A stretch of DNA of 64,000 nucleotides from an uncultured Acidobacteriota bacterium (GCA_963788965.1 CAWBIK010000007.1:4147-68146); one strand, 5' to 3'. Positions 4,829-56,859 are shown, numbered from the stretch's first letter. The notes: generated by a model not told the origin, from the sequence alone. Made by a program: numbers and translations.

Positions 4829-4883
4829 TAAATGATGAACGCTGAATGACGAATGAAAAGATTTCTACTCATCATTCATTCTT
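4829..4883. repeat. Heptamer-tiled palindromic element, ATGAATG/CATTCAT family (degenerate)
   Basis: aatgatga (4831-4838) pairs with tcatcatt (4869-4876). Arms made of aatgatg/gaatgac/gaatgaa units. Lies between the murB start and the murC stop. Confidence 0.45.
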
Positions 4884-6276
4884 TCTTCTCGCCGTTCTTC
4901 TTCTTCAATAGTTCGAGCAACTGCTCGCCCGCTTGATAGATGTTGCCCGCGCCGAGTGTGACAACCATATCGCCGGGATGCGCTTCGCTGACCAGAGCTT
5001 TAACGGCCGTGTCGAGTGTGCCGACATAGAATGCGTTCTTGTGCCCGTAGCTCTTGATCGCTTCCGTTAGTGTCTCGCCGGTCACGCCCTCGATTGGGTC
5101 TTCGCTGGCCGCGTAGATGTCGGTCACAAGCAGCACGTCCGCGTTGTTGAACGAACGCGCAAACTCATCTAGCTGATCGCGCGTGCGCGTGTAACGATGC
5201 GGCTGAAACAGCACGACCATGCGCCGCCCGTGCGAGCCGACCTTCGCTGCCGCAAGCGTCGCGCGCACTTCAGTCGGGTGATGCCCGTAGTCGTCCACCA
5301 CGAGCACGCCGGCCGCTTCCCCCTTGAACTGGAATCGGCGATTGACGCCCGCATAAGTCGCTAGCGCCTGCGCCATCACGTCGAACGGCACGCCTAGCTC
5401 GAAGCCGATGGCGACGGCCGCGAGCGCGTTATAGATGTTATGCAACCCCGGCACGTTTAAATTGACCTCGCCGACAACATCGTGCCCTTGCCAGACCGTA
5501 AAGGTCGAACCGAACGGCCGCTCAAACTTCATCCCATGCGCCGAGATGTCGGCCTGCGCGCTCAAGCCATAGGTGATGCGGCGGCGCTTGATGCGCGGGA
5601 TGACCGCTTGCACGTGCGGATCGTCGAGACACAAAACAGCCGCGCCGTAGAACGGCACTTTGTTGACGAAGCTGACGAAGCAATCGCGCATGTCGTCCAT
5701 GTCCCGGTAATAATCCATGTGCTCGCGGTCGATGTTCGTCACGACCGCGAACGTCGGCGTCAACATCAAAAACGAGCGGTCACTTTCATCCGCTTCAACC
5801 ACCATCAACTCACTCTTACCAAGCCGCGCGTTCGAGCCGAACGCACCAACCACGCCACCAACCACCACAGTCGGGTCTAAGCCTGCACCACCAAGCACTG
5901 TGCCGATCATCGAAGTCGTCGTCGTCTTGCCGTGCGACCCGGCGACGGCCACTGTGTCTTGTTTCAAACGCATCAACTCCGCCAACATCTCGGCGCGCGG
6001 AATGACGGGAATCGACCTGACGCGCGCTTCGAGCAGTTCCGGGTTGTCGTCGCGCACGGCCGTCGAACGAACCACCACTTGCGCGTCGCCCACGTACTCC
6101 GCCCTGTGCCCTTCGTGAACCTCGATGCCCATGTCCGCCAAACGATCCGTCACGCTCGAACGTTTCGCATCCGACCCCGACACGCGAAACCCCAGATTGC
6201 ACAGGACCTCTGCGATGCCGGACATGCCTATGCCACCGATGCCGACCAGATGAACGTGGCGTATGCGATGAAACAT
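4876..6276 (-). CDS. murC: UDP-N-acetylmuramate--L-alanine ligase
   Basis: 466-aa [19 protein letters not shown]-terminus and Mur ligase P-loop [13 protein letters not shown]. Confidence 0.95.
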
Positions 6277-6282
6277 AAGCGA

Positions 6283-6367
6283 GCGACTAGCGATCAGCGT
6301 TCAGCAGTCTGCGATCAGCTTTCAGCTTTTGTCTTTGCTGATCGCTAAAGGCTGACCGCTGACCAGC
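6283..6367. repeat. Heptamer-tiled palindromic element, GATCAGC/GCTGATC family
   Basis: gcgatcagc (6311-6319) pairs perfectly with gctgatcgc (6337-6345). Outer arms are tiled gatcagc/gttcagc versus gctgacc/gctgacc. The right arm encodes the MurG C-terminal tail. Confidence 0.7.
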
Positions 6368-7431
6368 TTTTCAATCAAATCCACGGTAGCGGCGGCCGCG
6401 TCGGGGCGCGCGAGTTTGCGCGCGGCTTGCTCCATCGCTGTGATGCGTTCGGGGGCGGCGACGAGCGCGGCGATCTCTTGCGCCAGTCGTGCGCCCGTTA
6501 GTTCCGGTTGCAGGATCATGCGGGCCGCGCCCGCCGCTTGCATGACTTCGGCGTTGCGTTGCTGCTCCATTTGACCGGGCAGCGGGATCATGATCGCGGC
6601 GCGACCGGCGGCGGCTAACTCTGCACTGGTCGTTGCGCCCGCGCGCGCGATGATGAGATCGGCGCTGGCAAAAGCCGTCGTCATATCGTCGATGTACTCG
6701 CGCACGTCAGCGTTTGTGGTCCACCCTGCTTGCTCGTAAGCGACACGCACTTTGTCAAAGTCGAGCTTGCCCGTCTGGTGCGTGATGTGCAGCACCGTGC
6801 GGTGCGCGTCGAGTTGTGCGAGTGCGGCCGTCATCGCTTCGTTGATGGCGCGTGCGCCTTGCGAGCCGCCGAACAGCAGCAGCGAAACGTGCGCCGGGTC
6901 GCGCACCTTCGCGGGTATGTCAAAGAACTCGCGGCGGACGGGGTTGCCCGTGACCACGCCCTTGCGCCCGAAGTGCGGCAGCGTCGCTTCCCATGAAGCC
7001 GCGGCCGCGTTCACAAACTTGATCAGTCGCCGGTTCGTAAAACCGGGCACGGCGTTCGACTCCATGATCAAAGTCGGCACGCGGCTTAAAGCTGCGACCA
7101 ACAACACCGGGCCTGACACGTAACCGCCCGCGCCGATCACAACGTCGGGGCGAAACTCTTTAATGAGTCGCCGCGCCGCCAGCAGACTCGTCGGCAACAC
7201 GGAGAGGCCGCGCATGCGCGCGCGCCAACCCATGTTCACCAGCCCCGCCGATTCAATGAGCGTCAACTCGTAACCCGCTTGCGGCACGAGTCGTGTTTCA
7301 AGCCCGCGCGCCGTGCCGACGAAGCGTAGGACCGCAGCCGCGTCGCGCCGCTTGATCTCGTTCGCCACCGCGATGGCCGGGTAGATGTGCCCGCCCGTGC
7401 CGCCGGCTGCGATGAGCGCCCGCATTGTCAA
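6322..7431 (-). CDS. murG: UDP-GlcNAc:undecaprenyl-PP-MurNAc-pentapeptide GlcNAc transferase
   Basis: 369-aa ORF. AAGGTGGHIYPAIAVA N-terminal motif and GT28 C-terminal domain (ARAGATTSAELAAAG). Confidence 0.95.
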   Translation of the reverse strand: MTMRALIAAGGTGGHIYPAIAVANEIKRRDAAAVLRFVGTARGLETRLVPQAGYELTLIESAGLVNMGWRARMRGLSVLPTSLLAARRLIKEFRPDVVIGAGGYVSGPVLLVAALSRVPTLIMESNAVPGFTNRRLIKFVNAAAASWEATLPHFGRKGVVTGNPVRREFFDIPAKVRDPAHVSLLLFGGSQGARAINEAMTAALAQLDAHRTVLHITHQTGKLDFDKVRVAYEQAGWTTNADVREYIDDMTTAFASADLIIARAGATTSAELAAAGRAAIMIPLPGQMEQQRNAEVMQAAGAARMILQPELTGARLAQEIAALVAAPERITAMEQAARKLARPDAAAATVDLIEKLVSGQPLAISKDKS

Positions 7432-7432
7432 A

Positions 7433-8638: not shown

Positions 8639-8644
8639 CTCTCG

Positions 8645-8733
8645 ATTGCGGCCTGCGGATTTCGGATTGCGGATTTGATCAACAACTAGCGGTTGTCTTT
8701 TCAATCCGCATTCCGAAATCTGACATCCGCAAT
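8645..8733. repeat. Heptamer-tiled palindromic element, GCGGATT/AATCCGC family
   Basis: Left arm attgcgg cctgcgg atttcgg attgcgg. Right arm caatccg cattccg aaatctg acatccg. AT-rich centre gatcaacaactagcggttgtctttt. The right arm encodes the MurD C-terminal tail. Confidence 0.8.
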
Positions 8734-10082: not shown

Positions 10083-10092
10083 AACTTAAAAC

Positions 10093-10136
10093 TCACTACA
10101 AAGACGCTAAGATCAATTTTTGTGTCTTCGTGGTTA
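10093..10136. repeat. Heptamer-tiled palindromic element, CACGAAG/CTTCGTG family (degenerate)
   Basis: ctacaaagacgc ... gtgtcttcgtggttaat. The right arm matches the arms of the elements at 28271 and 30063. Confidence 0.4.
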
Positions 10137-10143
10137 ATCTGCT

Positions 10144-11286: not shown

Positions 11287-11318
11287 CCTGCTCCGCTCTA
11301 AACTTTACTCGCCGAGCC

Positions 11319-15825: not shown

Positions 15826-15829
15826 ACTC

Positions 15830-16804: not shown

Positions 16805-16900
16805 CGCCCCGTGATGTCAAAGAACTGTAACGCGTGCCGTGTGACGAGTGACGAGTTTGGCTTTAATATATAGCCGCGCATTGACCGCCCCTCGCTTTTG

Positions 16901-21053: not shown

Positions 21054-21093
21054 AAAAGAGGCCGCTGCTTGATCAAGCAGCGGCCTCTTTTTT
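21054..21093. terminator. Rho-independent, potentially bidirectional terminator
   Basis: aaaa-gaggccgctgctt-gatc-aagcagcggcctc-tttttt: a perfect 13-bp GC-rich stem flanked by an A-run and a T-run, immediately after lemA. Confidence 0.8.
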
Positions 21094-21129
21094 GTCTAAT
21101 CAATCCTTCTCTAACCAACTTCAGCCGCG

Positions 21130-21390
21130 ATTGAACTTGATTCAGCCGCGACCGAATCAACTTTTATCGCAACTGAACTTAGTTCGGTCGTGACTGAACT
21201 AACTTTTATCGCAACTAAACTAACTTCGGTTGCGACCGAACTAAGTTCAGTTGCGACTAAACTAACTTCAGTTGCGACTGAATTAACTTTCATTGCAACT
21301 GAATCAAGTTTGGTTACGACTGAATTAAGTTCAGTTACAACTGAATCAAGTTCAGTTACAACTAAACTTAGTTCAGTTAGGCTTGCATTA
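21130..21390. repeat. Tandem array B: degenerate 21-bp repeat, about 12 units
   Basis: Units phased at 21130+21k: ttcagccgcgattgaacttga / ttcagccgcgaccgaatcaac / ... / ttcagttgcgactaaactaac / ttcagttgcgactgaattaac / ... / ttcagttacaactaaacttag. Confidence 0.85.
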
Positions 21391-22740: not shown

Positions 22741-22818
22741 CGTAAAGCGTGAATCGTAAATCGTGAATAGATAGAACTGTTGTTATCTATTCACGATTTA
22801 CGATTCACGATTCACGAT
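22741..22818. repeat. Heptamer-tiled palindromic element, CGTGAAT/ATTCACG family
   Basis: gtgaatcgtaaatcgtgaatag pairs perfectly (22 nt) with ctattcacgatttacgattcac. The centre is atagaactgttgttat. Lies inside the BMC operon between the BMC-H and BMC-P genes. Confidence 0.9.
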
Positions 22819-22820: not shown

Positions 22821-23103
22821 CTAGTCGTTGCCGATGGGCAGGGCTTCGTCCACGCTGCCGTGCGGGCGCGGGATGACGTGAACGCTGACCAGTTCGCCGA
22901 CGCGGCGTGCGGCGGCTGCGCCCGCGTCCGTCGCGGCCTTAACGGCCGCCACGTCGCCGCGCACGATGGCGGTCACAAAGCCTGCGCCGATCTTCTCGTA
23001 GCCGATCGAGCGTCACGTTCGCGGCCTTGACCATCGCGTCCGCCGCTTCGATCATCGCTACCAGCCCCTTAGTCTCGACCATGCCGAGTGCTTCCTGTGG
23101 CAT
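22821..23103 (-). CDS. BMC shell hexamer protein (BMC-H, PduA/CcmK-like); 1-nt insertion frameshift as sequenced
   Basis: Reverse translation from ATG 23103 gives [32 protein letters not shown]. After removing one base near 23008 it continues [48 protein letters not shown]. The span is 283 nt, which is 282+1. Missed by the ORF track because both halves are under 60 aa. Confidence 0.85.
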
Positions 23104-26084: not shown

Positions 26085-26169
26085 GAAATGATGCAGGCGG
26101 AATGATGACTGATGAATAACGAATAGCTTGTCTGTCATGCATCAGTCATCATTCCGCCTGCATCATTTT
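26085..26169. repeat. Heptamer-tiled palindromic element, ATGATG-type arms
   Basis: aaatgatgcaggcggaatgatgactgatg (29 nt) has a perfect reverse complement on the right arm. The centre is aataacgaatagcttgtctgtcat. Lies between ruvA and ruvB. Confidence 0.85.
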
Positions 26170-27342: not shown

Positions 27343-28272
27343 ATGAGACAGTGGCTCGCATCTTGGACGCGGCAACATTTCGGCGTGCGCAACCGCGCGC
27401 CGTGGACGTCGATCATCAGTCACACCGTCCACCAGTTTCACGAAAACGATCTGTTCACGCCCGCCGCCGCGATGAGCTACTTCGGGCTGTTGACACTTTT
27501 TCCCACCCTGCTCGTGCTGTTGGCCTTGAGCAACAACTTCGAGGTCGGCAAAGAGATGCTCAACCGCGCGGTGGACGTATATCCCGGCTCGCGCGAATTT
27601 TTGCGCTCGACCATTCGCTCGTTAGAGGATGTCGGCCCGACCGTCATCTTCACTTGCATCGGCGTCACGTTATGGGCCGGCTCGTGGGTCTTCAGCGTGG
27701 TCGAGCGCGCGATCAATCGCCTGTGGGGCACGAAGCCACGCACGTTCCTGCACGGGCGCGGGTTGACGTTGGCGATGATCGGCGGCATCGGCGTACTCTT
27801 GATCGCCTCCGTGCTGTTGACCTACATGCTCGTCGCCTTGCGCGAGATGACATCGCGTTTGACGCCGCGCCAGATCGAGCGCGTAGCGATGCTGTCGCTC
27901 GCGGGCAACGCGTTCTGGCAAGTCGTCTTCACGTTAGTCAGCATCACGGTCACGATCACTCTGTTCACTATCGTCTATCGGCTGATGCCGAACGGGCGCG
28001 TGACCTTGCGCGATTCGATTCCGGGCGCGGTCGTCGCCGGGCTGCTGTGGGAGATCGCCAAATACATCTTCGCGTCGAGCCTGCACTACTTTCATTACGA
28101 TCAGATTTACGGCTCGGTCGGCGCGGTCGTCGCCGTCCTCACATGGAGCTACGTCTCAAGCCTGATTCTACTGTTCGGCGCACAAATCTCGGTCGTCTTC
28201 CACCAAGAGACATCGGGCGCGCACGAAGCTGTTCATACGTCGCAAATGCCTGTCGCGCCGCAAGGCGATTAA
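27343..28272 (+). CDS. YihY/BrkB-family membrane protein
   Basis: 309-aa polytopic ORF. AAMSYFGLLTLFPTLLVL and YGSVGAVVAVLTWSYVSSLILLFGAQI are typical of the YihY (former RNase BN) family. Confidence 0.8.
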   Translation: MRQWLASWTRQHFGVRNRAPWTSIISHTVHQFHENDLFTPAAAMSYFGLLTLFPTLLVLLALSNNFEVGKEMLNRAVDVYPGSREFLRSTIRSLEDVGPTVIFTCIGVTLWAGSWVFSVVERAINRLWGTKPRTFLHGRGLTLAMIGGIGVLLIASVLLTYMLVALREMTSRLTPRQIERVAMLSLAGNAFWQVVFTLVSITVTITLFTIVYRLMPNGRVTLRDSIPGAVVAGLLWEIAKYIFASSLHYFHYDQIYGSVGAVVAVLTWSYVSSLILLFGAQISVVFHQETSGAHEAVHTSQMPVAPQGD

Positions 28273-28339
28273 CCATAAAGACACGAAGCCACGAAAGAAA
28301 CCTTTGCTGCTTCTTTTGTGTCTTCGTGTCTTTGTGGTT
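28271..28339. repeat. Heptamer-tiled palindromic element, CACGAAG/CTTCGTG family
   Basis: aaccataaagacacgaagccacgaaag ... ttgtgtcttcgtgtctttgtggtt. Starts inside the yihY stop codon. Confidence 0.85.
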
Positions 28340-28350: not shown

Positions 28351-29406
28351 GTGTTGCTTTCCGAATTTGATTACGAACTGCCCGAAGAGTTGATCGCGCA
28401 GCAACCGCTCGCGGCGCGCGACGCGGCCCGCATGCTCGTGTTGGAGCGTGCGCGCAGCACGTGGCGCGACCGCATCTTCGCGGAGTTGCCGGTGGAGTTG
28501 AACGCGAACGACGTGCTTGTCGTCAACAACACGCGCGTCTTTCCGGCACGGCTCGTCGGCTCGCGCGCGCCGACGGGCGGACGCGTCGAACTGTTCTTGA
28601 TCGAGGAACGCGCGCCGCTCGTGTGGGCGGCGCTGGCGCGACCCGCGCGGCGACTGCAAACGGGCGCGCGCGCCACGTTCGGCGACGGACGCTTACAAGC
28701 GGAAGTAGTTGAAGCGCACGCGGACGGCTTGCGTGTGGTGCGCTTTCATTGCGCGGGCGATTTCCACGCGCTCTTGGAAGAGACGGGCCAGACGCCGCTG
28801 CCCCCTTACATCAAGCGCGCGGACGAAGACGCAGACACGGCCGCGCGCCGCAGTGCCGACCGCGAACGCTACCAGACCGTCTATGCGCGGGCGCGTGGCG
28901 CGATTGCCGCGCCGACCGCAGGACTACACTTCACGCCGCGCGTCTTGGACGACTTGCGCGCACGCGGCGTCGCCGTCATCGAGATCACTTTGCACGTCGG
29001 CTACGGCACGTTCGCGCCCGTGCGCGTCGCGGACTTGAGCGCGCACACGGTCGCGCCGGAGCATTATGAGATCGACGTTATTGCGGCCCGCGCGCTCAAC
29101 GAAGCACGCGCGGCGGGGCGGCGCATCGTCGCCGTCGGCACGACGACTGTGCGCGCGCTTGAATCGTCGCTGGATGAAATGGGGCGTGTACGGACGGGCG
29201 CAGGGCTGGCGCAGTTGACGATCACACCGGGCTACACGTTCAAGGTAGTCGAGGCGCTCATCACAAATTTTCACTTGCCGCGTTCGTCCTTGCTTGTGCT
29301 CGTCGCCGCGTTCGCGGGGCGCGACCTCGCGCTTGCCGCCTACCGCCACGCCGTCGCCGCTCGCTATCGCTTCTATAGTTACGGCGACTGCATGTTGATC
29401 GTTTAG
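28351..29406 (+). CDS. queA: S-adenosylmethionine:tRNA ribosyltransferase-isomerase
   Basis: LLSEFDYELPEELIAQQP...PLPPYI...YQTVYA...AAPTAGLHFT...VGTTTVRALES...YRFYSYGDCMLI are QueA hallmarks. GTG start at 28351 inferred by analogy with known QueA N-termini. Confidence 0.9.
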   Translation: MLLSEFDYELPEELIAQQPLAARDAARMLVLERARSTWRDRIFAELPVELNANDVLVVNNTRVFPARLVGSRAPTGGRVELFLIEERAPLVWAALARPARRLQTGARATFGDGRLQAEVVEAHADGLRVVRFHCAGDFHALLEETGQTPLPPYIKRADEDADTAARRSADRERYQTVYARARGAIAAPTAGLHFTPRVLDDLRARGVAVIEITLHVGYGTFAPVRVADLSAHTVAPEHYEIDVIAARALNEARAAGRRIVAVGTTTVRALESSLDEMGRVRTGAGLAQLTITPGYTFKVVEALITNFHLPRSSLLVLVAAFAGRDLALAAYRHAVAARYRFYSYGDCMLIV

Positions 29407-29407
29407 T

Positions 29408-29472
29408 AGATCGCAAATAGCTCAAAAGCAGTGTTCATCTATTTACGATTTACGATTCACGATTTACTATTT
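29408..29472. repeat. Heptamer-tiled palindromic element, CGTGAAT/ATTCACG family (asymmetric)
   Basis: agatcgcaaatag ... ctatttacgatttacgattcacgatttactattt. The right arm has 4 tiled heptamers. The left arm is short. Confidence 0.55.
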
Positions 29473-29479
29473 ATCCGGC

Positions 29480-30062: not shown

Positions 30063-30131
30063 TAACCACCAAGCCACGAAGGCACGAAAGATCAATCAGC
30101 TATCTTTCGTGCCTTCGTGGCTTGGTGGTTA
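30063..30131. repeat. Heptamer-tiled palindromic element, CACGAAG/CTTCGTG family (perfect 30-bp arms)
   Basis: taaccaccaagccacgaaggcacgaaagat - caatcagct - atctttcgtgccttcgtggcttggtggtta. The arms are exact reverse complements. The right arm encodes the last 14 codons and the stop of the 30092..31486 gene. Confidence 0.95.
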
Positions 30132-35166: not shown

Positions 35167-36651
35167 ATGGAGACACACGCACCAACGAACGCGCACGACG
35201 CGCAGCCGACGCAACCCGCCGCGCCGCTCGACGTGCTCATCCTCGCCGCCGGCCTCGGCACGCGCATGCGCTCGCGCACCGCCAAAGTCCTGCACCAACT
35301 CGGCGGTCGCCCGCTCATCGCACACGTCTGCCACACGGCCGCCGCGCTCGTCCGCGAAGGGCGCACCGTCTATGTCGTCGTCGGGCATCAAGCGGAAGAA
35401 GTGCAAGCGTCGGTTGAAGCGGAACTCGGCGCGCACGGTGCGGTCTTCATCACGCAGACCGAGCAACGCGGCACGGGCGACGCGGTGCTGGCCGCGCGCG
35501 CGGCGCTCGCCGACGCCAACTCTACCCTGCTTGTGCTATCGGGCGACGTGCCGCTCGTCCGCGCCGAAACGCTCGGCGCACTGGTCCAACAGCATCGCAC
35601 GCATCGCGGGCACGGTGCGGCGTGTACGTTGCTCAGCGTCCGGCTTGAAGACCCGACCGGCTACGGCCGCGTCGTGCGCGACTCCGAAGGGCGCTTCGAG
35701 CGCATCGTCGAGCAGAGGGATGCGACGCCCGAAGAACGACAACTCAACGAGATCAACGCGGGCATCTATTGCTTCGAGACGCGCGCACTCTTCTCCGCCC
35801 TTGATCGCGTGCAGCCCGCGAACGCGCAGGGCGAGTATTACTTAACAGACGTGCCCGGCATCTTGCGCGCGGACGGCGCGGACGTGTCCGTCTTCCTGCA
35901 CGCGGACGCACGCGAAGTCAGCGGCGTCAACACGCGTGTCGAGTTGGCCGACTTCGAGCGCCTGTTGCGCGCGCGCACGTTGCGCCGTCTGATGCTCGAC
36001 AGCGGCGTGACCGTGATCGATCCGGCGCATACATACGTCAGCGCCGAAGCGCAGATCGGGCGCGACACCATCTTGCACCCGGACGTACACATCGAAGGGC
36101 GCACAATCATCGGCGAAGGCTGCGAGATACGCTCCGGCACGCGCATCACCAACGCGCGCATCGGCAGCGGCGTTGTGATCAAGGACCATTGCGTCATCGC
36201 CGACTCGGAGATCGCGGATCACTGCACGCTGGGGCCGTTCGCGCACCTGCGCATGGGCGCACAGATGGAAGAAGCCGCCGCCGTGGGCAACTTCGTCGAG
36301 ATGAAGAAGTCGCGGCTTGGGCGCAAAGCAAAGTCGATGCACTTGACTTACTTGGGCGACGCGACCATCGGCGACAACACGAACATCGGCGCGGGCACGG
36401 TGACGTGCAACTACGACGGGCAACGCAAACACCCGACCGTCATTGAAGACAACGTGAAGATCGGTTCGGACACGATGCTGGTCGCGCCCGTGCGCGTCGG
36501 CGCGCGCGCCGTGACCGCCGCCGGTTCAGTCGTCACAAAAGATGTCCCGCCCGACACACTCGTCGCGGGCGTGCCCGCCGTCGTCAAAAAGCACCTGCGC
36601 AACGACGAGCAAGACGCTGAAGAAACAACAGCAGTGATGAAGGAACAGTAA
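35167..36651 (+). CDS. glmU: Bifunctional GlcNAc-1-P uridyltransferase / GlcN-1-P acetyltransferase
   Basis: 494-aa ORF. LILAAGLGTRMRS...QTEQRGTGDAV, plus a C-terminal left-handed beta-helix hexapeptide region. Confidence 0.95.
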   Translation: METHAPTNAHDAQPTQPAAPLDVLILAAGLGTRMRSRTAKVLHQLGGRPLIAHVCHTAAALVREGRTVYVVVGHQAEEVQASVEAELGAHGAVFITQTEQRGTGDAVLAARAALADANSTLLVLSGDVPLVRAETLGALVQQHRTHRGHGAACTLLSVRLEDPTGYGRVVRDSEGRFERIVEQRDATPEERQLNEINAGIYCFETRALFSALDRVQPANAQGEYYLTDVPGILRADGADVSVFLHADAREVSGVNTRVELADFERLLRARTLRRLMLDSGVTVIDPAHTYVSAEAQIGRDTILHPDVHIEGRTIIGEGCEIRSGTRITNARIGSGVVIKDHCVIADSEIADHCTLGPFAHLRMGAQMEEAAAVGNFVEMKKSRLGRKAKSMHLTYLGDATIGDNTNIGAGTVTCNYDGQRKHPTVIEDNVKIGSDTMLVAPVRVGARAVTAAGSVVTKDVPPDTLVAGVPAVVKKHLRNDEQDAEETTAVMKEQ

Positions 36652-36716
36652 CGAGTGACGAGTGACGAGTTAAGGCCAAGTCTTTAACTTGTCACTCGTC
36701 ACTCGTTACTCGTCAC
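36648..36716. repeat. Heptamer-tiled palindromic element, GTGACGA/TCGTCAC family
   Basis: gtaacgagtgacgagtgacgag - ttaaggccaagtctttaacttg - tcactcgtcactcgttactcgtcac. Overlaps the glmU stop codon. Confidence 0.9.
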
Positions 36717-36741
36717 TGCTTTCTCGAAAGGAAAGCAACAC

Positions 36742-41776: not shown

Positions 41777-44755
41777 ATGAAAAGAGTTTACGTTTCCTCA
41801 ACCTTCCTTGATTTGCAAGAGTGCCGCGCAAAAGTTAACGGCGCGCTGCGCCGCATGGGGCTGGAAGATGTGGCGATGGAGCATTACGTCGCCGACCACA
41901 GGCCGGCGGTTGATAAGTGTCTGGCAGATGTGGCCGCTTGCGATCTCTACGTGGGCGTCTTCGCGTGGCGACACGGCTTCGTGCCGAAGAAGGACAACCG
42001 CAAGAAGATGTCCATTACTGAGATGGAATATCGCCACGCGGTCAAGACCGGCAAGCCGCGTTTGATCTTTTTGTTGGATGAAGAGGCATCGTGGCCCGTC
42101 AAGCTCATCGACGACGATAAGAAACGCATCAAGCAACTGCGCGCCGAGTTGGCGAGGGATAACACCGTCTCTTTTTTCAAGTCGGCTGCGGAATTGGGCG
42201 AAGTGTTCGCGCCCGCAGTTCACAACTGGCTACGGGAGCATGGCCACCTCACGCCGGTCGCACGCCCCGCCGAGTTGGACTTGACGAACTACTACGCCGC
42301 TTTGCTCAAACGTTACCAGCGCATCGATCTGAACGCGCTGACGCCGCCGGAGAAGGAAGAGTATCTACAGTTGCAACTGCGGCAGGTGTTCGTCGCGCAG
42401 AGCGTGCGCGAGAATCCGCCGCCGGTCGAACTGCCGAAAGAGTTGTGGGACAAGCTGCGGCGCGAGGGCGAGTTGCATCATGAAGACTTGCCTGCGGGTG
42501 TTGCGCCCGATGATGTGTTGCGCGCGCGCACAGGCTACTACGAGAAGACGCCGCAGCCCGTGCTGGACGTGCTGACAGACGCGCGCCACAAGTACAGCAT
42601 CATTCTGGGCGATCCGGGCGCGGGCAAGTCCACGCTGGCGCGCTACGTCCTGCTGTCGTTGATTAGCGAAGAGGGCGACGAACGATTGCGCCGCGCCTTT
42701 GCCGGCCATGTGCCGCTGTTAATCGAACTGCGGAGCTACGCCGGTCTGTACGCGGACGGCAAGTGCGAGAGCTTCACGGAATTTCTCGTCACGCTGGGCA
42801 AGAGTGAAGGTTGGGGCATCGAACGCGAGGCGCTTGAGCATTATCTTAAACAGGACGGGCGCGCACTCGTCATCTTCGACGGGCTGGACGAAATCTTCGA
42901 CCCCGATCAACGCGAACAGATCGCGCACCGCATCGTCGGCTTCACCAACGAGTACCCGCAGGCGCGTCTCTTCGTCACCAGCCGCGTCATCGGCTACCGG
43001 CGCAAGATACTTGCCGACGCAGGCTTCGCACACTTCACGCTGCAAGATTTAGACGAGCCGCAGGTCGCAGAGTTCGTTACACGCTGGTACGACCTTGCCT
43101 TGAGCGACCAACCCGAAGAGGCCGCCGCGCGCCGCGAACGCATCCTGCGCGCGTTCAAAGACTCCGCTTCCATTCGCCAACTCGCGGGCAATCCGATGCT
43201 CTTGACCATCATGGCCATCATCGGCAAGCACAGAGAACTCCCGCGCGAGCGTTGGAAACTCTACGAGCACGCCGCCAGCGTCCTTGTCGAGCATTGGGAC
43301 GTAGGCAAGCACCTGAAAGACCACAGCATCGACGCCCCTTTCATCGAAGAAGACGACAAGAAAGAACTGCTGCGCCGGCTCGCCTTCAAGATGCAGGCGG
43401 GCGCAGGCGGGTTAGCGGGCAACTACATCCACCGCGACGAATTGCAGACCGAGTTCGAGGGCTATCTAACAGAACGTTATGAACTGACACCGGCAGCGGC
43501 GAAGCCCGTCGCCCGCGCGATGCTCGAACAGTTCCGCGAGCGCAACTTCATCCTCTCGCTCTACGGCGCGAACATCTACGGCTTCGTCCACCGCGCCTTT
43601 CTCGAATACTTCTGCGCCACGGCGTTCACACACAAGTTCGAGAAGACGCGCGCGATAACGCCCGACGAATTGAAGCGCGACGTTTACGGCGCACACTGGC
43701 GCGAGCGTAGCTGGCACGAAGTCCTGCGCCTGATCTGCGGCATCCTTGACGAGAAGTTCGCTGGCGAGATCATTGACTTCCTTGTGACGGAAATTAAGCC
43801 GCCAACGGATGGCTGGACTGATGAACAGCCGCCGTGGAACATAGCTCTGGCCATACAGTGCCTCGGCGAAGTCCGAAACCTCGGCACGGTCGCAGACCCC
43901 GCGCGGCGACTGTTACAGGCTGTATGCACATTCCTTGAAACTGAGCTGAAGAGCGGCAACTTCAAGCTTTATGGCTTTCTACATGATCCAATCGTCACCT
44001 CAATCGAAACAATCGGCCCGAACTGGCCGCACAGAGCCGTGTTAGCAGAGTGGCTGAAAGGATTACCTTCCATAGATTTCTCTTATTATTATGCTGAACC
44101 ATTCGGGCGGATTGTCGGCTCAGTTGGTGCGGGGCTGAAGGAAATACATCAGAGCATCTTGTCTTTTGCAGCCCACGATGATGTGAGATACCGGACACTA
44201 GCACTATTCGCATTAGCCATAGGGTGGCATAACAACACCGCGACCCTGCCGCTGTTGCGCGCCCGCGCCGTCGAGGACGCACACCAATATGTTCGCAGCA
44301 CGGCGCTCAATGCGTTGGCACAGCACTACCGCGCGGACGCCGCGACCCTGCCGCTGTTGCGCGCCCGCGCCGTCGAGGACGCACACCAATATGTTCGCAG
44401 CACGGCGCTCGAAGCGTTGGCGCAGCACTACCGCGCGGACGCCGCGACCCTGCCGCTGTTGCAGGCGCGCGCCGTCGAAGATGCAGACCAATATGTTCGC
44501 AGCACGGCGCTCAATGCGTTGGCACAGCACTACCGCGCGGACGCCGCGACCCTGCCGCTGTTGCGCGCCCGCGCCGTCGAGGACGCACACCAATATGTTC
44601 GCAGCACGGCGCTCAATGCGTTGGCGCAGCACTACCGCGCGGACGCCGCGACCCTGCCGCTGTTGCGCGCCCGTGCGAAGGATGACGAATCAGAGTTGGT
44701 GAAAATGACAGCCCGAAGACGTGCGGAAGAGTTGAGTCGCGCCGTGGTGTCGTAG
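41777..44755 (+). CDS. STAND NTPase: DUF4062 (TIR-like) N-terminus, NACHT ATPase, C-terminal HEAT repeats
   Basis: Intact 992-aa ORF. N-terminus VYVSSTFLDLQECR...CDLYVGVFAWRHGF...SITEMEYRHAVKTGKPRLIFLL matches the DUF4062 pattern. Walker A ILGDPGAGKSTLA. Walker B ALVIFDGLDEI. C-terminus has PBS-lyase-type HEAT repeats (DAHQYVRSTALNALAQHY). Confidence 0.9.
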   Translation: MKRVYVSSTFLDLQECRAKVNGALRRMGLEDVAMEHYVADHRPAVDKCLADVAACDLYVGVFAWRHGFVPKKDNRKKMSITEMEYRHAVKTGKPRLIFLLDEEASWPVKLIDDDKKRIKQLRAELARDNTVSFFKSAAELGEVFAPAVHNWLREHGHLTPVARPAELDLTNYYAALLKRYQRIDLNALTPPEKEEYLQLQLRQVFVAQSVRENPPPVELPKELWDKLRREGELHHEDLPAGVAPDDVLRARTGYYEKTPQPVLDVLTDARHKYSIILGDPGAGKSTLARYVLLSLISEEGDERLRRAFAGHVPLLIELRSYAGLYADGKCESFTEFLVTLGKSEGWGIEREALEHYLKQDGRALVIFDGLDEIFDPDQREQIAHRIVGFTNEYPQARLFVTSRVIGYRRKILADAGFAHFTLQDLDEPQVAEFVTRWYDLALSDQPEEAAARRERILRAFKDSASIRQLAGNPMLLTIMAIIGKHRELPRERWKLYEHAASVLVEHWDVGKHLKDHSIDAPFIEEDDKKELLRRLAFKMQAGAGGLAGNYIHRDELQTEFEGYLTERYELTPAAAKPVARAMLEQFRERNFILSLYGANIYGFVHRAFLEYFCATAFTHKFEKTRAITPDELKRDVYGAHWRERSWHEVLRLICGILDEKFAGEIIDFLVTEIKPPTDGWTDEQPPWNIALAIQCLGEVRNLGTVADPARRLLQAVCTFLETELKSGNFKLYGFLHDPIVTSIETIGPNWPHRAVLAEWLKGLPSIDFSYYYAEPFGRIVGSVGAGLKEIHQSILSFAAHDDVRYRTLALFALAIGWHNNTATLPLLRARAVEDAHQYVRSTALNALAQHYRADAATLPLLRARAVEDAHQYVRSTALEALAQHYRADAATLPLLQARAVEDADQYVRSTALNALAQHYRADAATLPLLRARAVEDAHQYVRSTALNALAQHYRADAATLPLLRARAKDDESELVKMTARRRAEELSRAVVS
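44240..44680 (+). repeat. Near-identical 102-bp (34-aa) tandem repeats inside the NACHT gene, 4 full copies plus 1 partial
   Basis: gcgaccctgccgctgttgcgcgcccgcgccgtcgaggacgcacaccaatatgttcgcagcacggcgctcaatgcgttggcacagcactaccgcgcggacgcc recurs at 44240, 44342, 44444 and 44546 with only a few substitutions. Confidence 0.85.
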
Positions 44756-44779: not shown

Positions 44780-45250
44780 GGGCGGGGCGGGGTGGGAGAT
44801 GCGGCGGGCGGGGGGGTGAAGTGAGGCGGTGGGGGTGAAAATCGTCGTGCGGGCGTGAAAGTCGAGCAGTGCGGGTGTTGAGGCGAGGCGGGGCGCGTGT
44901 GAAGTCTGCCAGTGCGGGCGTGAGGCGGGTGGTGCGGGGTGTAAATCGAGCCAGTGCGGGCGTAAACCGTGCCGGTGCGGGGAAAAGTGAGCCAGTGCGG
45001 GCGTGAAATTTAGCCGGTGCGGGGTTGATCTGAGCCAGTGCGGCGAAAAATCGTGCGGTGCGGGAAAAAGTTGTGCGGTGCGGGCGTGGAGTCGTAGCGG
45101 GGCGAGCGAAAATCTCGGCCGGGCGGGTCGAAATCGTGCCGTGCGGGGTGTAAACGTGGCCGTGCGGGTTGAAAACGGGGCGGTGCGGGCCGCAATGGCG
45201 GCGGGGCGGCGTTGAGTGGCGATGTGCGGGCGTTGTGGGTCGGCGCGCAG
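44780..45250. repeat. Tandem array C: degenerate 20-22-bp repeat with GTGCGGG core, about 20 units
   Basis: GTGCGGG-like cores at 44847, 44869, 44912, 44932, 44954, 44975, 44995, 45017, 45038, 45058, 45078, 45141, 45162, 45183 and 45224. Degenerate units lie between them. Typical unit: gtgcgggcgtgaaatttagccg. Confidence 0.8.
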
Positions 45251-45256: not shown

Positions 45257-45335
45257 GGATTGTAGATTGCGGAATGCGGAATGCGGATTAAGCAGACAGT
45301 TGTTCTTATAACCCGAAATCCCCGCTCCGCAATCG
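45257..45335. repeat. Heptamer-tiled palindromic element, GCGGATT/AATCCGC family (right arm degenerate)
   Basis: gattgta gattgcg gaatgcg gaatgcg gatt - aagcagacagttgttcttata - acccgaaatccccgctccgcaatcg. Confidence 0.6.
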
Positions 45336-45457
45336 TCTTTGTTTGCGGTGGCGCGTTGTGTGTATAATGTGCGCTCTCGTAAGGGGCGTGTTGTGCGCCC
45401 TTTTCTCACAGGTAGCCTCGCAAGACCTCTAACCTACCACAAAAGGAGATAGCCTCA

Positions 45458-46139
45458 ATGAATGATCTGGAAACTCGCAGGCACGAGATGCTGGTGCGCG
45501 TGCGTGATTTTGGGACGACGCACGCGGGCGCGTTCCCGGCCGGTAGTCTGGGCAGCGAGCAGTTGAACGTCCTCGGCGCGCGCCGTGAAGGAGTTGGAAC
45601 AGCACGCGACGACGCAGACTTCCAGCGCGGGCGCGGCGCGACAGGGCAGCACATCAAGGGCCGTGGCGCATGCGGCCCTGCGCGAAGACCTGCTGGCCAT
45701 CACACGCACGGCGCGCGCGCTGGCGTTGGACGTGCCGGGCCTAGACGACAAGTTTCGCCTGCCGCGCAGCGGGAGCGACACGGCGCTGCTCAACTCAGCG
45801 CGCGCCTTCGCCGCCGATGCCGCGCCGCTCACAGCCGAGTTCATCAGACACGAACTGCCCGCAGACTTCCTCGACGACCTCAACGCCGACATCGCAGACT
45901 TCGAGCAAGCCGTCAACAGCCAGAACACAGGCATGGACGCGCGCGTCGCCGCCACCGCCGCCATCGACGGCGCGCTCGAACGCGGACTCAAAGCCGTGCA
46001 GCGCCTAGACGTGATCGTGCGGAACAAGTTCCACAACGACCTGTCCACGCTCGCCGCGTGGACGAGTGCAAGCCACGTCGAGCGTGCGCCGAAGCGGAAA
46101 CAGACGGTGGCGTCGCCGGATGCGCCGGCCAAAGCTTGA
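45458..46139 (+). CDS. Hypothetical protein; one frameshift as sequenced
   Basis: ORFs 45458.. and 45585..46139 join at about 45575-45590 (MNDLETRRHEMLVRVRDFG... / ...ELEQHATTQTSS...AAWTSASHVERAPKRK). No family recognised. Confidence 0.5.
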
Positions 46140-46230
46140 TTGCGGAATGCGGAGTGCCAATTTCGGAATGCGGATTGCGGATTGTAAAGACAAGTGTTCC
46201 TTAATCCGCAATCCGAAATCCGAAATTGGC
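46138..46230. repeat. Heptamer-tiled palindromic element, GCGGATT/AATCCGC family
   Basis: gattgcggaatgcggagtgccaatttcggaatgcggattgcggatt - gtaaagacaagtgttcctt - aatccgcaatccgaaatccgaaattggc. Confidence 0.8.
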
Positions 46231-46484
46231 TGAACGAAGGGCCGCCGGGGTTGGTGGGGGGCGAAGCAACCGGACGGGCGGCGGATACGTCTCATGCGCG
46301 TCGTTTCTTTCGTGCGCGGACGGAGAGCCTCACCTGAGTTAGCCTCGCGGTGAATGACCACTGACCAACCGGCGCGAAAGAGTCTCAAACCCCCAATCTG
46401 GTCGAAGCTGTGCGCCCGTGCCCGCGTTGTGTGCCGTCGTGCTGCTGAGACTTCCGCTGACCTCGCAATAAGGAGAAAGCTGTT

Positions 46485-52959: not shown

Positions 52960-52990
52960 CGCACGCGACCGCAGCCGCACAACAACCATC

Positions 52991-54752
52991 ATGCCGCGAT
53001 CTCAGTCACACATAACGCGCTTGCTTCGTTCTGCGCTTAGCACGTGCGCGCTCTTGCTGTGTGCCTTGTGCGCACAAGCACAGACGGGCGGCTCGATCAC
53101 CGGGCGCGTCATAGACGACGCGGGGCAGCCCATCGTTAACGCACAAGTTTTTATCTCGACCCCGCCACGCAGCGCGCGGACGATGAGCGATCCGGAAGGC
53201 AAGTTCAGCTTCGACAATCTGGCGCGCGGCGCTTATGCCGTCAGTGCGAACGCGCCCGGCTATTTCGACCCGACGACGCTTGAGTCCGAGCGCAACGAGC
53301 GCACTTACTACCGGCCCGGCGACAGCGTCACGATCAGACTGAGCAAAGGCGGCGTCATCGCCGGACGCGTGCGCGACGCGGGCGGCGAGCCAATTATCGC
53401 CGTGCGCGTCCAAGCCATCCGCGTGCGCGCGCTCGACAAACAACAGCCCAACAGCTACACGTCGCCGAACGGGCGCGTCTATGAACGCACGACCGATGAT
53501 CGCGGCGTCTATCGCTTCTACGGTCTGCTGCCCGGCGTCTATCTTGTCGCCGCAGGCGGCAACGGCCTCAACAGCTTCGGTCCGCGCCCGTCCCCTTATG
53601 ACGACGACGTGCAGACCTTCTATCCCGCGACCACACGCGACGGCGCAAGCGAACTGGTCCTACACGAAGGCCAAGAACTGCCCGACGTTGACATACGTTA
53701 TCGCGGCGAGCCGGGCCACGCCATCAGCGGCCGGGTCGAGAACGCGGGCAATACACCCGTCGCACTCACAATCATCCCGGCCGGTTTCAACTACGTGGCG
53801 AGCAATCGCTTTCTATCTGACCGCGCGAATAGCAACTTCTTCATCTTCGAGGGTCTGGCCGACGGCGAGTACGATCTCGTCGCCGAGCAATACACAACCG
53901 GCGCGACATCTGCGCGCACAGCGGCCGCGAGTCAACGCGTCAGCGTGCGCGGCGCGGACCTGACCGGCCTCAAGCTCACACTCGCGCCGCTCGCCGCCGT
54001 CACGGGGCGCGTCGTGCTTGAAGCCGCGCCACAGCCCGCGCCGTGGAAAGAGCAATGTCAAAGCAAGCTCGACGCCACGATGGGCGAGACGCTCATCAAC
54101 GCGCGCCGCGAACCTGAGGCGCGCACCACTAACCCGCACACCGGCGGCGTGCGTCTGACTTGGCGCTGCGCCCGACGACAAAGGCGAGTTTGCCTTGCGC
54201 GGTCTAACAAGCGGTCGCTTCCGTTTCAGCGTGCGCCCGCCCGGCCCCGACTGGTACGTGCGCGCCGCCATGCTTGCTCCCACGCCCGCACCCGGCAGCA
54301 GGCGTGCGCCCACCACGCCCACGCGCGCCGCCGACACGAACCCGCTCGTTGATGGACTGACGCTCGCCCCCGGCGCGCAGGTCAACGATCTGACTATCAC
54401 ACTCACACCGGGCGCGGCCGAACTAGGCGGCCACGTCACGACCGCGAGCGCAGGCGCAACGCTGCCCGCGCTGCAAGTCTTCCTCGTCCCCGTCGAGCGC
54501 GAGCGCGCCGACGAAGTACTGCGCTACGCCGTCACACGCGCCCGCATCGACGCCACGTTTGCTTTCACACAACTCGCGCCCGGCCGCTATCACCTACTGG
54601 CCGAGCGCACGCCCGACGGCGAGGCTGTGCCGCCAACCTTCGACGCGCCGATGCGTGCCCGCCTGCGCCGCGCCGCCGAGACGCAAAAGCACCTAGTCGA
54701 GTTGAAGCCCTGTCAACGCGTTGACGACTTCACATTCAACTTCATACCGTGA
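52991..54752 (+). CDS. Secreted CarboxypepD_reg-like domain protein; one frameshift as sequenced
   Basis: Signal peptide, then GSITGRVIDDAGQPIVNAQV and GVIAGRVRDAGGEPIIAVRV modules. The frames join at about 54150-54168 (APDDKGEFALRGLTSGRFRF). Confidence 0.7.
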
Positions 54753-54755
54753 ACG

Positions 54756-54828
54756 CAGAATGATGAATGATGAATGACAAACAAGCTATTTGCTATTCAT
54801 CATTCATCATTCTTCGTTCATCATTTGC
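54756..54828. repeat. Heptamer-tiled palindromic element, ATGAATG/CATTCAT family
   Basis: agaatgatgaatgatgaatgac - aaacaagctatttgct - attcatcattcatcattct (19-nt perfect match between arms). Lies between convergent genes. Confidence 0.85.
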
Positions 54829-54829
54829 T

Positions 54830-56056
54830 TTACGGATGTGGTGCGGGCGGCGCGGCGGTCATCGTCGCGTGATGCACGTCGGGCAGGAAGTAGAAGAGGA
54901 TCGCCAAGATCGCATAGACCGAGAGCAGTTGCACGCCCTCGATCCAGTTGCTTTCGCCGTCGCTGCTGATCTGTTCGACGATGAAGACCGAGGCGACGAC
55001 CGCGACGATCTCAGGGATGGTGAACTCAAGATTCATCGGCGCGCCGAACAGGTATGAGGCGAACACAAGCACCGGCGCGACGAACAGCGCGATCTGCAAG
55101 CTTGAGCCGAGCGCGATCCCCAAGCTCAAGTCCATCTTGTTGCGCAATGCCATCAAGATCGCCGACGAGTGTTCGGCCGCGTTGCCGATGATGGCGACCA
55201 CGATGACGCCGACGAAAACTTCCGTCAGCCCCAACGTCTCGCGCGCGCCCTCGACCGCGCCCACCAGAAACTCCGAGATGAGCGCCACGAACGCCGTCGC
55301 AATGGACAGGACGAGCGCCGACTTGCCCTTCGACCAGTGCGCCCCTTCTTCTTGGGCCGCCAGCGCCAACTCATGCCCCACTTCGCACGCCGCGCCCTGT
55401 TCCATCTTGCCGACGAACAACTCCTTGTGCGTTACCAGCGAGAAGACGAGCGTGGCGATGTAAGTGAGAAAGAGCACGACGGCGATGGCGAGCGATAGGC
55501 TTTGTTCCTTCGCGGGCGTCCAGCCGCCGGCGGCGACCGAGACGCGCGCCGCTGCTTGATGAAAGATCGTCGGGATGATGAGCGCGATGGCCGCGAGCGT
55601 CAACGCCGTCGCCGTGATCCCCGCCGCCATGCGGTTAAACTCCTGCTGTCGAAACTTCAAGCCGCCGGCCAAGAGCGACGCGCCCAGTACGAGCAGCACG
55701 TTGCCGATGATCGAGCCGGTGATCGAAGCTTTGACGACGCCCTCCAACCCTTTCGATAACGCGAACAGAGCGATGATCAACTCGGCGGCGTTGCCGAACG
55801 TGGCGTTCAACAATCCGCCGACGCCCTGCCCCATATGTTCGGCCAGATGTTCCGTTGCGCGTCCCATCCAACCCGCCAGCGGGATGATCGCCAGCCCCGA
55901 CACGATGAACAGCGCCGTCTGATTCTCAAGACTCGGCACGAAGCGCAACACAATGGCGATGGGCACGAAGACAAGCAGCCAGTTCAAGCTCGGCTTGAGC
56001 CACGAGCGGCGCGCGGGCCGCGGTGCAGGCGCAGCGTCAGTTGCAGATGTCGGCAT
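54830..56056 (-). CDS. Ca2+/H+ antiporter (CaCA/CAX family, ChaA-like)
   Basis: 408-aa polytopic ORF with two alpha-repeats ([12 protein letters not shown] and [13 protein letters not shown]). Confidence 0.9.
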
Positions 56057-56080
56057 AGCATCTATTTACCATGAAAAGGG

Positions 56081-56161
56081 CGCGAATCGTGAATCTTAAA
56101 TCGTAAATCGATAAGAACTGGTCTTGATCTATTCACGATTTAAGATTCACGGTTCACGATC
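56081..56161. repeat. Heptamer-tiled palindromic element, CGTGAAT/ATTCACG family
   Basis: cgcgaat cgtgaat cttaaat cgtaaat cg - ataagaactggtcttgatct - attcacg atttaag attcacg gttcacg atc. Confidence 0.85.
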
Positions 56162-56212
56162 TTTTCGTCCGCGCTTTCCGCCCCGCGCGACGTGTGCTTA
56201 AATGTTCCGTGG

Positions 56213-56806
56213 ATGCAACAGACCATGCGACATGAACACACGCTCGATGCAACGCGCGCCGCGCTCGTCGTCATCGACATGCAGGAAAGCTTTCGTCACC
56301 ACATCGCGGACTTCGCCGAGACGGCGGCGCGCATTGCGCTCGTCACCCACGCGGCGCAGTTATTGCACGTGCCCGTCGTCGTCACCGAGCAGTACCCGAA
56401 AGGCTTAGGGCCAACGGCCGCAGAGATACGCGCCGTGTTGCCCGCAAGCGTCGTGCCGATTGAGAAGACCGCCTTCAGTTCGTGCGGCGCGCAAGAGTTC
56501 TGCGCGCGGCTCGACGAGGCCGGCGCGCGGCAAGTGCTGGTGTGCGGCATCGAAGCGCACATCTGCGTCAACCAGACCACACACGATCTCCTCGCGCGCG
56601 GCTTCCAAGTGCATCTCTTAACCGACTGCATCACCTCCCGCACCGCGCACAACAGACAAACCGGCCTCGAAAAGATGCAGGCGAGCGGCGCGCTCCCCTC
56701 GTCAATCGAACTGGCCCTCTTTGAACTCCTGCGCGACGCGCGGCACGAACAGTTCAAGGCCGATACAGAAATTGATCAAGTAGGATCGTGCATCGTTCGA
56801 TCGTGA
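56213..56806 (+). CDS. Isochorismatase-family hydrolase
   Basis: AALVVIDMQESF...VVVTEQYPKGLG...LVCGIEAHICVNQT is a cysteine hydrolase/isochorismatase-like fold. The start (56213 or 56225) is uncertain. Confidence 0.85.
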   Translation: MQQTMRHEHTLDATRAALVVIDMQESFRHHIADFAETAARIALVTHAAQLLHVPVVVTEQYPKGLGPTAAEIRAVLPASVVPIEKTAFSSCGAQEFCARLDEAGARQVLVCGIEAHICVNQTTHDLLARGFQVHLLTDCITSRTAHNRQTGLEKMQASGALPSSIELALFELLRDARHEQFKADTEIDQVGSCIVRS

Positions 56807-56859
56807 ATAGTTAACACTGATTCCAGCTATCCGCGATTGACGATTGACGATTCACGAGC
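56784..56859. repeat. Heptamer-tiled palindromic element, CGTGAAT/ATTCACG-like family (imperfect)
   Basis: gatcgtg catcgtt cgatcgtgaatag - ttaacactgattccagctat - ccgcgat tgacgat tgacgat tcacgag. Confidence 0.6.

Follow-up and report, generated by a model that had tools for sequence, protein, structure and literature searches.

A superfamily of short palindromic repeats tiled from tandem heptamers at gene boundaries in the Pyrinomonadaceae lineage

What are the hairpins of 50-95 nt that stand at about one gene boundary in three or four of a 64,000-nt stretch of DNA from an uncultured Acidobacteriota bacterium (GCA_963788965.1, CAWBIK010000007.1:4147-68146; the whole stretch is called the window below), and what keeps their two arms complementary while the arm sequence differs from one copy to the next? 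The window has a G+C content of 63% and comes from a relative of the Pyrinomonadaceae (Acidobacteriota, Blastocatellia), its MurG being 82-87% identical to the MurG of Pyrinomonadaceae metagenome-assembled genomes and its closest relatives showing about 81-83% nucleotide identity. An earlier note, made from the sequence of the window, had listed about 16 palindromes at gene boundaries, with arms tiled from tandem 7-nt units. We read these copies as members of a superfamily of short palindromic repeats, dispersed in the genome and confined to the Pyrinomonadaceae lineage. We hold it to be somewhat probable (roughly 55%) that they resemble the repetitive extragenic palindromes (REP) in being dispersed palindromic repeats, that they are maintained and diversified at the level of DNA and evolve in concert, and that any effects on mRNA, which we infer, are secondary.

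To follow the elements beyond the window, a gap-free hairpin detector was applied to it and to 65 division and cell wall (dcw) loci of Pyrinomonadaceae (L001-L065), and a looser detector to the same set together with the closer RuvB loci L081-L105 (1.35 Mb in total), the counts of copies resting on about 20 kb per related genome. Periodicity was scored as the best self-match lag of the arms against a control in which the arms were shuffled with their complementarity kept. A lag of 7 was obtained in 81 of the 115 strong hairpins of the window and L001-L065, where shuffled arms gave an expectation of 0.3, and a lag of 8 in another 8; Tandem Repeats Finder (TRF), used as a second method, likewise reported period 7 in the arms of the window copies. 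The looser detector returned 137 periodic hairpins, and the proposal of the earlier note thus passes two of the tests it had named, recurrence in relatives and periodicity against shuffled hairpins. Among these 137 copies the arms have a median length of 27 nt (23-31) and about four units, a minority being of period 8, and the whole element has a median of 74 nt (10th-90th percentile 54-88). The architecture is kept across the lineage while the arm sequence differs, as had been seen in the window, with 78 consensus units among the 137 copies and many of them met once. The outgroup sets comprised 70 loci, namely 15 dcw loci (Bacteroidota, Clostridia, Bryobacterales and others) and 55 more distant metagenome RuvB loci. 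No periodic hairpin was detected in the 15 outgroup dcw loci, and in the 80 metagenome RuvB loci, among which the best protein identity to the RuvB of the window was 85%, they were confined to loci with a RuvB at least 70% identical to that of the window, save for two marginal ones in the 55 more distant loci.

The window itself holds 16 copies of about six families. Tandem arrays of the heptamer type, AT-rich and in inverted arrangement, are present at all the coordinates that had been listed, and the elements have a GC content of 0.32-0.53 against 0.63 for the window. Fold strength was expressed as the RNA free energy (dG) and as z against dinucleotide shuffles. By these measures 14 of the 16 sites fold as AT-rich hairpins, ten of them very stably (dG -37 to -62 kcal/mol, z -4 to -15.5; 6283, 8645, 22741, 26085, 28271, 30063, 36648, 46138, 54756 and 56081) and four more weakly (z -2.7 to -3.2; 10093, 19498, 45257 and 56784), while 4829 (z -0.3) and 29408 (z -1.2) have decayed, with most of one arm gone, and are no longer hairpins. 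Tiling by heptamers describes most families, but the one that had been read as CACGAAG (28271, 30063 and, by sequence, 10093) has a period of 8 nt with units like CCACGAAG. The gene contexts given earlier for murB/murC, murC/murG, ftsW/murD, murD/mraY, ruvA/ruvB and BMC-H/BMC-P are correct by Pfam, which places mraZ, mraW, ftsI, a Mur ligase, mraY, murD, ftsW, murG, murC and murB on the minus strand and identifies ruvA/ruvB, queA, glmU/glmS, EutN-type shell proteins, a Na+/Ca2+ exchanger and an isochorismatase among the other genes. The copies are listed below with their coordinates in the window (dG in kcal/mol).

4829-4885, murC/murB (genes by Pfam): decayed copy of ATGAATG-type units, with the murC stop (4876-4878) inside the element; dG -9.5, z -0.3
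6283-6365, murG/murC: hairpin of GATCAGC/GGTCAGC units, which resemble the GAGGTCA elements of relatives at the same junction; dG -37.3, z -4.0
8645-8733, murD/ftsW: hairpin of GCGGATT units covering the last ~18 murD codons, with the stop at 8679-8681; dG -45.9, z -6.8
10088-10140, mraY/murD: weak copy of the 8-nt family (TTAACCACGAAGACAC...); dG -14.5, z -3.1
16841-16855, mraZ/mraW: half-site of two GTGACGA units, aligned across the junction with L001, L002 and L003
19498-19568, between a TPM-domain gene and the next plus-strand gene: moderate hairpin of GATGAAT units; dG -20.6, z -2.7
22741-22816, BMC-H/BMC-P (EutN), minus-strand genes: hairpin of CGTRAAT units with the inner stem AATAGA/TCTATT; dG -42.9, z -11.7
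26085-26169, ruvA/ruvB: hairpin of AATGATG-type units and irregular segments mirrored across the arms; dG -54.2, z -10.1
28271-28339, BrkB-like gene/queA: hairpin of the 8-nt family (CCAYAAAG/ACACGAAG/CCACGAAA), best lag 8; dG -38.6, z -10.8
29404-29473, queA/GNAT acetyltransferase: decayed copy with a 3' array of 4.7 ATTTACG units (29441-29473) and the 5' arm mostly gone; dG -11.9, z -1.2
30063-30131, between convergent genes for GNAT (plus) and an ankyrin-repeat protein (minus): hairpin of the 8-nt family whose 30-bp arms, noted before as perfect, are 100% complementary; dG -55.5, z -15.5
36630-36724, glmU/glmS: hairpin of AGTGACG units with the inner stem AGTTAA/TTAACT and arms of 3.4 and 4.4 units; dG -62.2, z -13.3
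45257-45336: weak hairpin of GCGGAWT units adjoining a G-rich array of 21-nt period; dG -25.1, z -2.7
46138-46232: hairpin of GCGGAWT units with a 5' array of 6.7 and a 3' array of 3.4 units; dG -48.0, z -9.1
54750-54826, directly 3' of the Na+/Ca2+ exchanger gene (minus; open reading frame end 54830): hairpin of GAATGAT units; dG -37.4, z -9.0
56073-56166, between the divergent starts of the exchanger (56056, minus) and the isochorismatase (56192, plus): hairpin of CGTRAAT units; dG -44.0, z -9.2
56784-56860, overlapping the 3' end of the isochorismatase gene (open reading frame end 56806): moderate hairpin of CGTGAAT/CGATTGA units; dG -27.0, z -3.2

The general feature of the centre is an inner palindrome, A-rich on its 5' side and T-rich on its 3' side. 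An AAGACAA/TTGTCTT-like core had been noted as repeatedly present in the loop; it is a recurrent motif, with AAGAC/GTCTT in 35 of the 137 copies of the lineage against 6.8 expected, but not a universal one, and occurs in just 7 of the 16 window copies. Each family has an inner stem of its own, CGTRAAT ending in AATAGA/TCTATT, AGTGACR in AGTTAAAA and the 8-nt family beginning with TTAACCAC, and these recur at non-orthologous loci, across genomes and metagenomes. Copies are also found nested, seven of 136 lying in the centre of a copy of a different unit, with none in the shuffled control. A CGTRAAT hairpin is centred in an AGTGAYG/AGTGACR hairpin in L006 (19980-20110), L021 (19540-19680), L064 (19620-19750) and L050 (6000-6130), and as the nested copy of L050 stands at murF/mraY, unlike the junction of the other three, the same nesting occupies two unrelated loci.

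The comparison of syntenic junctions that the earlier note had suggested gave both filled and empty sites. At mraY/murD and murC/murB a different family is present in each of L001, L002 and the window, and L032 has short junctions without an element at both of these and at murD/ftsW, its murC and murB genes probably overlapping as ATGA. At murD/ftsW the GCGGATT unit of the window copy at 8645 is common to L001, L014, L058 and L060, and L002 differs. Across many genera the junctions murD/ftsW, murG/murC and murF/mraY are occupied, by different families. The half-site reported at 16841 stood up to this comparison and is, by the alignment, the remnant of an AGTGACR element that is complete in relatives at mraZ/mraW.

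How the arms of one element change together can be read from their mismatches. Arm-to-arm mismatches are spaced by exactly one period in 59 cases, against 19.5 expected, from which it follows that each arm undergoes homogenisation in the way of a tandem array; the number of units by TRF is often unequal between the arms, as at 36648 and 46138. At the same time complementarity from arm to arm (0.92) is greater than identity between neighbouring units (0.79), and irregular segments such as those of 26085 are mirrored between the arms too. In the orthologous element at murF/mraY of five genomes, AGTGACR has changed to AGTGATG in all units of both arms, with both sides changed in 8 of 37 pairs. 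As one substitution has here spread to about eight positions, slippage together with templating between the arms is a far simpler account than independent compensatory mutations, and we infer that the sweep reflects the former. The co-variation of the arms, which had been taken as a sign of selected structure, is a concerted change of whole units in both arms rather than independent compensatory mutation. The units are also related to one another: of 65 distinct ones, 59 differ in some rotation by a single substitution from another unit, where random units matched for composition give 34.

We compared signals at the level of the transcript with those at the level of DNA. Mismatches on the sense strand were G:U in 59 and A:C in 74 cases in the dcw set, and G:U in 57 and A:C in 64 (p = 0.59) in 85 co-directional copies; since G:U is not above A:C, selection on an RNA structure, one of the options raised in the earlier note, is not detectable. 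The purine fraction of the loops on the sense strand is 0.52, so that the loop has no orientation to transcription, and orientation was rejected as a property of the elements, the few asymmetric 5-mers arising probably from orthologous copies counted repeatedly. The arms do have a direction of their own. The GC skew of the 5' arm is positive in 113 of the 132 copies with a non-zero skew, on either strand, and the arm pairs comprise 725 G:C and 287 C:G; the 5' arm being G-rich on both strands, the units point to the centre from both sides. The units further follow a grammar in which TA, CT, GC, TGG and GTAG are depleted (GTAG observed once against 7.6 expected) and TCA, AGT, TGA, CAG, GTGA and TCAG are enriched. 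The elements are thus strand-symmetric, with their signals at the DNA level rather than the RNA level. No Rfam 15 family matched at gathering score anywhere in the window.

The position of the copies is closely tied to gene ends. Just 3 of the 137 lie inside a called open reading frame (ORF) and a further 22 overlap the 3' end of one, and by type of gap 74 are co-directional, 9 convergent and 5 divergent, the background gaps numbering 665, 78 and 91. When position was tabulated relative to stop codons, as had been advised, the median start of the hairpin in co-directional pairs was found 4 nt ahead of where the upstream stop codon ends, and its median end 13 nt short of the following start codon; a copy therefore occupies nearly the whole spacer and often provides the stop codon. 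In L008 (1006-1093), L011 (2935-3022), L015 (8691-8778) and L021 (8696-8781) the murD frame traverses the whole AGGGATG hairpin and stops 2-4 nt beyond, with about 28 codons added. Because 7 is not a multiple of 3, we also examined translation stops in all frames as a defining property and rejected it, 5' arms with stops in three frames numbering 34 of 137 and those with none 41 of 137. At the ftsW start, the 6-13 nt that follow the hairpin are without a Shine-Dalgarno-like purine run in the window (~8640) and in L002, L006, L010, L014, L020, L029 and L040, and the ftsW start of L032, which has no hairpin, is also without one. As the elements overlap stop codons and lengthen or shorten the ends of ORFs (murD, ftsW and queA), gene callers will misplace those boundaries.

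A stem-loop immediately after a stop codon is also what an intrinsic terminator would look like. A T-tract (at least 6 T within 10 nt after the stem) follows 8% of the copies, in keeping with the near absence of U-tracts noted before. Identity with intrinsic terminators was rejected, the stems being AT-rich and 23-31 bp long, the T-tract present in that 8%, the copies standing at consecutive junctions of essential operons (four in a row in the dcw cluster of the window, with the half-site at a fifth) and some lying between divergent genes; the earlier judgement that these are not simple terminators therefore stands. Between 17001 and 37000 of the window, canonical terminators neither explain nor accompany the hairpins, as terminator-like sites matching the consensus are there at chance level, with 23 found and 21.9 expected. 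A perfect palindrome (19+19, AAAAGAGGCCGCTGCTTGA/TCAAGCAGCGGCCTCTTTT) at 21054-21091, one of whose sides has an A-run and the other a T-run, resembles a classical bidirectional terminator, so that such structures occur in the genome alongside the heptamer hairpins.

Whether such elements had been described before was left open by the earlier note. Our literature search found no paper that describes them in Acidobacteria, and a close analogue exists elsewhere. Among heptamer repeats, the short tandemly repeated repetitive (STRR) heptanucleotides of cyanobacteria were reportedly described by Mazel in 1990, and Elhai in 2008 is said to have found small repeats nested in Nostoc heptamer arrays. 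The closest known case comes from Rehm et al. 2015 (PMC4692102), with convergent GGGAATC heptamer pairs in Xanthomonas and GGGGAYT repeats in Nostoc/Anabaena. The GGGAATC arrays are 89-93% intergenic, near the end of the upstream ORF and typically of about four units; they lie mostly between co-oriented genes and are under-represented between divergent ones, and their length and sequence vary at the same junctions between close relatives (PMC4692102). Facing arrays on opposite strands, with the potential for a stem-loop or cruciform and of unknown function, number 70-75 cases per Xanthomonas genome (PMC4692102). The present elements share with them the tandem 7-nt units at about four per array, the convergent arrays on opposite strands with the G-rich strand towards the centre, the intergenic position near the upstream ORF end, the preference for co-oriented over divergent neighbours and the variation among close relatives at one junction. 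They differ in belonging to another phylum (Acidobacteriota), in having dozens of unit families rather than one, each with an inner palindrome of its own, and in that the inverted form, a minority there, is the rule here. Unlike the Xanthomonas unit, most units here are without G-tracts, so that a G-quadruplex is not the common denominator; GGG runs are seen in some families (e.g. AGGGATG) and in none of the window units ATGAATG, CGTGAAT, GCGGATT, GTGACGA, CCACGAAG and GATCAGC. Nesting, sweeps through both arms and presence on phage contigs are found here and are not reported for the Xanthomonas repeats in the available part of that paper (PMC4692102).

The cyanobacterial STRR and the TAACTGA repeats (MacGregor 2015, PMC4679880) resemble the present elements as intergenic tandem heptamers of patchy phylogeny, often within operons. 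They are, however, mainly direct arrays, with one inverted case in the BOGUAY genome (PMC4679880), and usually lie just upstream of start codons, whereas here convergent pairs begin at stop codons. TAACTGA is known as direct repeats in Beggiatoaceae, cyanobacteria and Bacteroidetes (PMC4679880); in our set TCAGTTA/TAACTGA arrays serve as hairpin arms in L045 (11060-11118) and L046 (1473-1546).

With REP, bacterial interspersed mosaic elements (BIME) and REP doublets forming hairpins (REPIN) the elements have in common that they are dense intergenic families forming hairpins, situated in operons and at 3' ends, kept in related species, clustering and nesting. As in REP, there are many dispersed intergenic copies per family, with 16 copies in the 64-kb window and recurrence at non-orthologous loci. 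REP, which are linked to RAYT (Y1) transposases, are 20-40 nt long without an internal tandem periodicity, unlike the present elements with their median of 74 nt and arms of 23-31 nt, and the end tags GTAG/CTAC and CGTC/GACG of REP occur in 4 and 0 of the 137 copies. The earlier suggestion of a REP- or MITE-like element thus holds for the families at unrelated loci, the nesting and the filled and empty orthologous junctions, and fails for the size and end tags of REP. Miniature inverted-repeat transposable elements (MITE) of the Correia/NEMIS kind, whose transcripts fold and are open to processing by RNase III, are likewise short non-coding insertions at gene boundaries. Unlike MITE, the whole element is here one palindrome of tandem units rather than an internal segment bounded by distinct terminal inverted repeats. 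No target-site duplication was detectable among relatives 81-83% identical, and no related insertion sequence (IS) element was identified. We also rejected attC sites and CRISPR arrays (no formal test), the units being contiguous without spacers and the copies lying in housekeeping operons and not in cassette arrays.

Viral contigs were scanned for one unit, and 63 matched, several of them dense in hairpins of diverse units. The IMG/VR contig L197 carries five hairpins within 5.9 kb and, by Pfam, a gene for a Mu-type portal protein, and L196, from the same source, has four in 6.6 kb with a virion morphogenesis protein and Phage_tail_S (Pfam); by these genes both are contigs of Mu-like phages. 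The IMG/VR contigs L187 and L212 are also dense in period-7/8 hairpins of many unit types.

A copy is thus made up of two arrays that converge, each with about four 7-nt units in tandem (some families have 8-nt units) and with the G/A-rich arm 5' on either strand, flanking a family-specific inner palindrome, A-rich 5' and T-rich 3', and a variable loop. On the reading as REP-like dispersed repeats, new copies would arise through some process of copying or insertion, each arm would then expand, contract and become homogenised through replication slippage, and complementarity between the arms would be kept by templating at the DNA level (hairpin or template-switch correction) and not by selection on RNA. 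Operon transcripts would contain hairpins with folding energies of -37 to -62 kcal/mol and no U-tract, more likely to act as barriers to 3' exonucleases, RNase III targets or cistron insulators than as terminators. Several observations weigh against this account. The same unit is kept at one junction across genera (GAGGTYA at murG/murC, AGGGATG at murD/ftsW), which hints at sequence constraint and so at function, and unit types met once are so numerous that the elements could have originated where they lie, without dispersal. A target-site duplication was not definable, relatives just 81-83% identical being too distant for an alignment of the sequence beside filled and empty sites. No transposase or other mobilising enzyme was found in the DNA examined, about 20 kb per genome, and a tblastn probe with an approximate IS200 TnpA (Y1) query had no match there, which at this coverage is uninformative. 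With terminator-like sites at chance level in the 20-kb stretch, the hairpins could be the 3'-end structures of the lineage.

The main rival is that they are selected RNA elements, intercistronic hairpins that set mRNA stability or processing, or leaky terminators without a U-tract, in which families are replaced while the structure is kept. This would explain the tight fit from stop to start, the occupation of murD/ftsW, murG/murC and murF/mraY by different families in many genera, the very stable folds and the scarcity of canonical terminators beyond chance in the scanned stretch, and at 23-31 bp the stems have the length that RNase III requires. We nevertheless think it unlikely, as sense strands show no G:U excess over A:C, loops and arms have no orientation to transcription, copies stand between divergent genes (5 in the survey, and 56073-56166 in the window), copies that have decayed or been halved are tolerated within the dcw cluster, and changes sweep all units in the manner of conversion rather than of pair selection.

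The strand symmetry and the constant geometry of convergent arrays, along with the units conserved across genera, would also suit a role as DNA targets in nucleoid organisation or regulation, recognised by proteins that bind cruciforms or read 7-bp heptads in unbroken series. Plasmid pSM19035 offers a precedent in parS, whose contiguous 7-bp heptads are bound by the omega protein. With at least 65 distinct units, however, such recognition would need either many specificities or a reader of structure alone, most copies lie between cistrons or at 3' ends and not at promoters, and no candidate protein was identified, which makes such a role highly improbable. Alternatively, the hairpins may be a local by-product of mutation, heptanucleotide slippage and quasi-palindrome correction acting on any intergenic seed without copying between loci and without function. 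Among the long simple repeats of prokaryotes heptanucleotides are the commonest, polymerase slippage being the cause put forward (Mrazek 2007, cited in both PMC4679880 and PMC4692102), and the long tail of unit types seen once, the network of single substitutions, the unequal copy number between arms and the presence on phages, which fits a process supplied by the host, all agree with it. Inner stems and centres common to copies at unrelated loci and in different genomes, the nesting of one family in another at two non-orthologous loci, and different complete families at one junction among close relatives speak against it, and we consider it very unlikely as the whole explanation. The preferred reading remains that of dispersed repeats shaped at the DNA level.

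The window carries other repeats. Downstream of murB the spacer at 3607-3775 holds eight tandem 21-nt units (like CCACTGACGAATTTCCTTTAT), a length equal to 3 x 7 nt and close to two turns of the DNA helix. At 21124-21378 there are about twelve tandem 21-nt units (like GTTGCGACTGAACTAAGTTCA), each with its own 7-nt inverted repeat ACTGAAC/GTTCAGT, the whole array being self-complementary too, and at 44785-45250 about twenty G-rich 21-nt units (GTGCGGG...GAAA...) lie immediately upstream of the 45257 hairpin. A 102-nt unit is repeated 4.3 times with 94% identity at 44238-44673, within a DUF4062-NACHT-HEAT ORF (41777-44755). Next to the 22741 hairpin, the BMC-H shell gene on the minus strand (22821-23103) is in two frames (ORFs 22939-23103 and 22821-22976), from a frameshift or a sequencing error.

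For the Pyrinomonadaceae the elements mean that any transcript crossing them, including those over four consecutive junctions of an essential cell-wall and division operon, would be shaped by the hairpins, which may also serve in metagenomes as a marker for DNA of this family and possibly of its phages. The unit families, the orthologous sets across genera, the nested copies and the phage DNA form a natural series for the joint evolution of 7-nt repeats and palindromes. A further idea, which we rate as quite unlikely, is that the Pyrinomonadaceae and their phages may possess a process working in a 7-nt register, polymerase or repair slippage with templating between arms, that builds, lengthens and homogenises hairpins at gene boundaries, these being co-opted as a general means of segmenting mRNA between cistrons or of linking termination with re-initiation. 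Heptamer repeats have gone unexplained since their description in cyanobacteria and Xanthomonas, and if such a process were true the lineage would be a tractable system for the long-standing question of why heptanucleotides predominate among long simple repeats in prokaryotes, and of what role the STRR, GGGAATC and TAACTGA repeats play.

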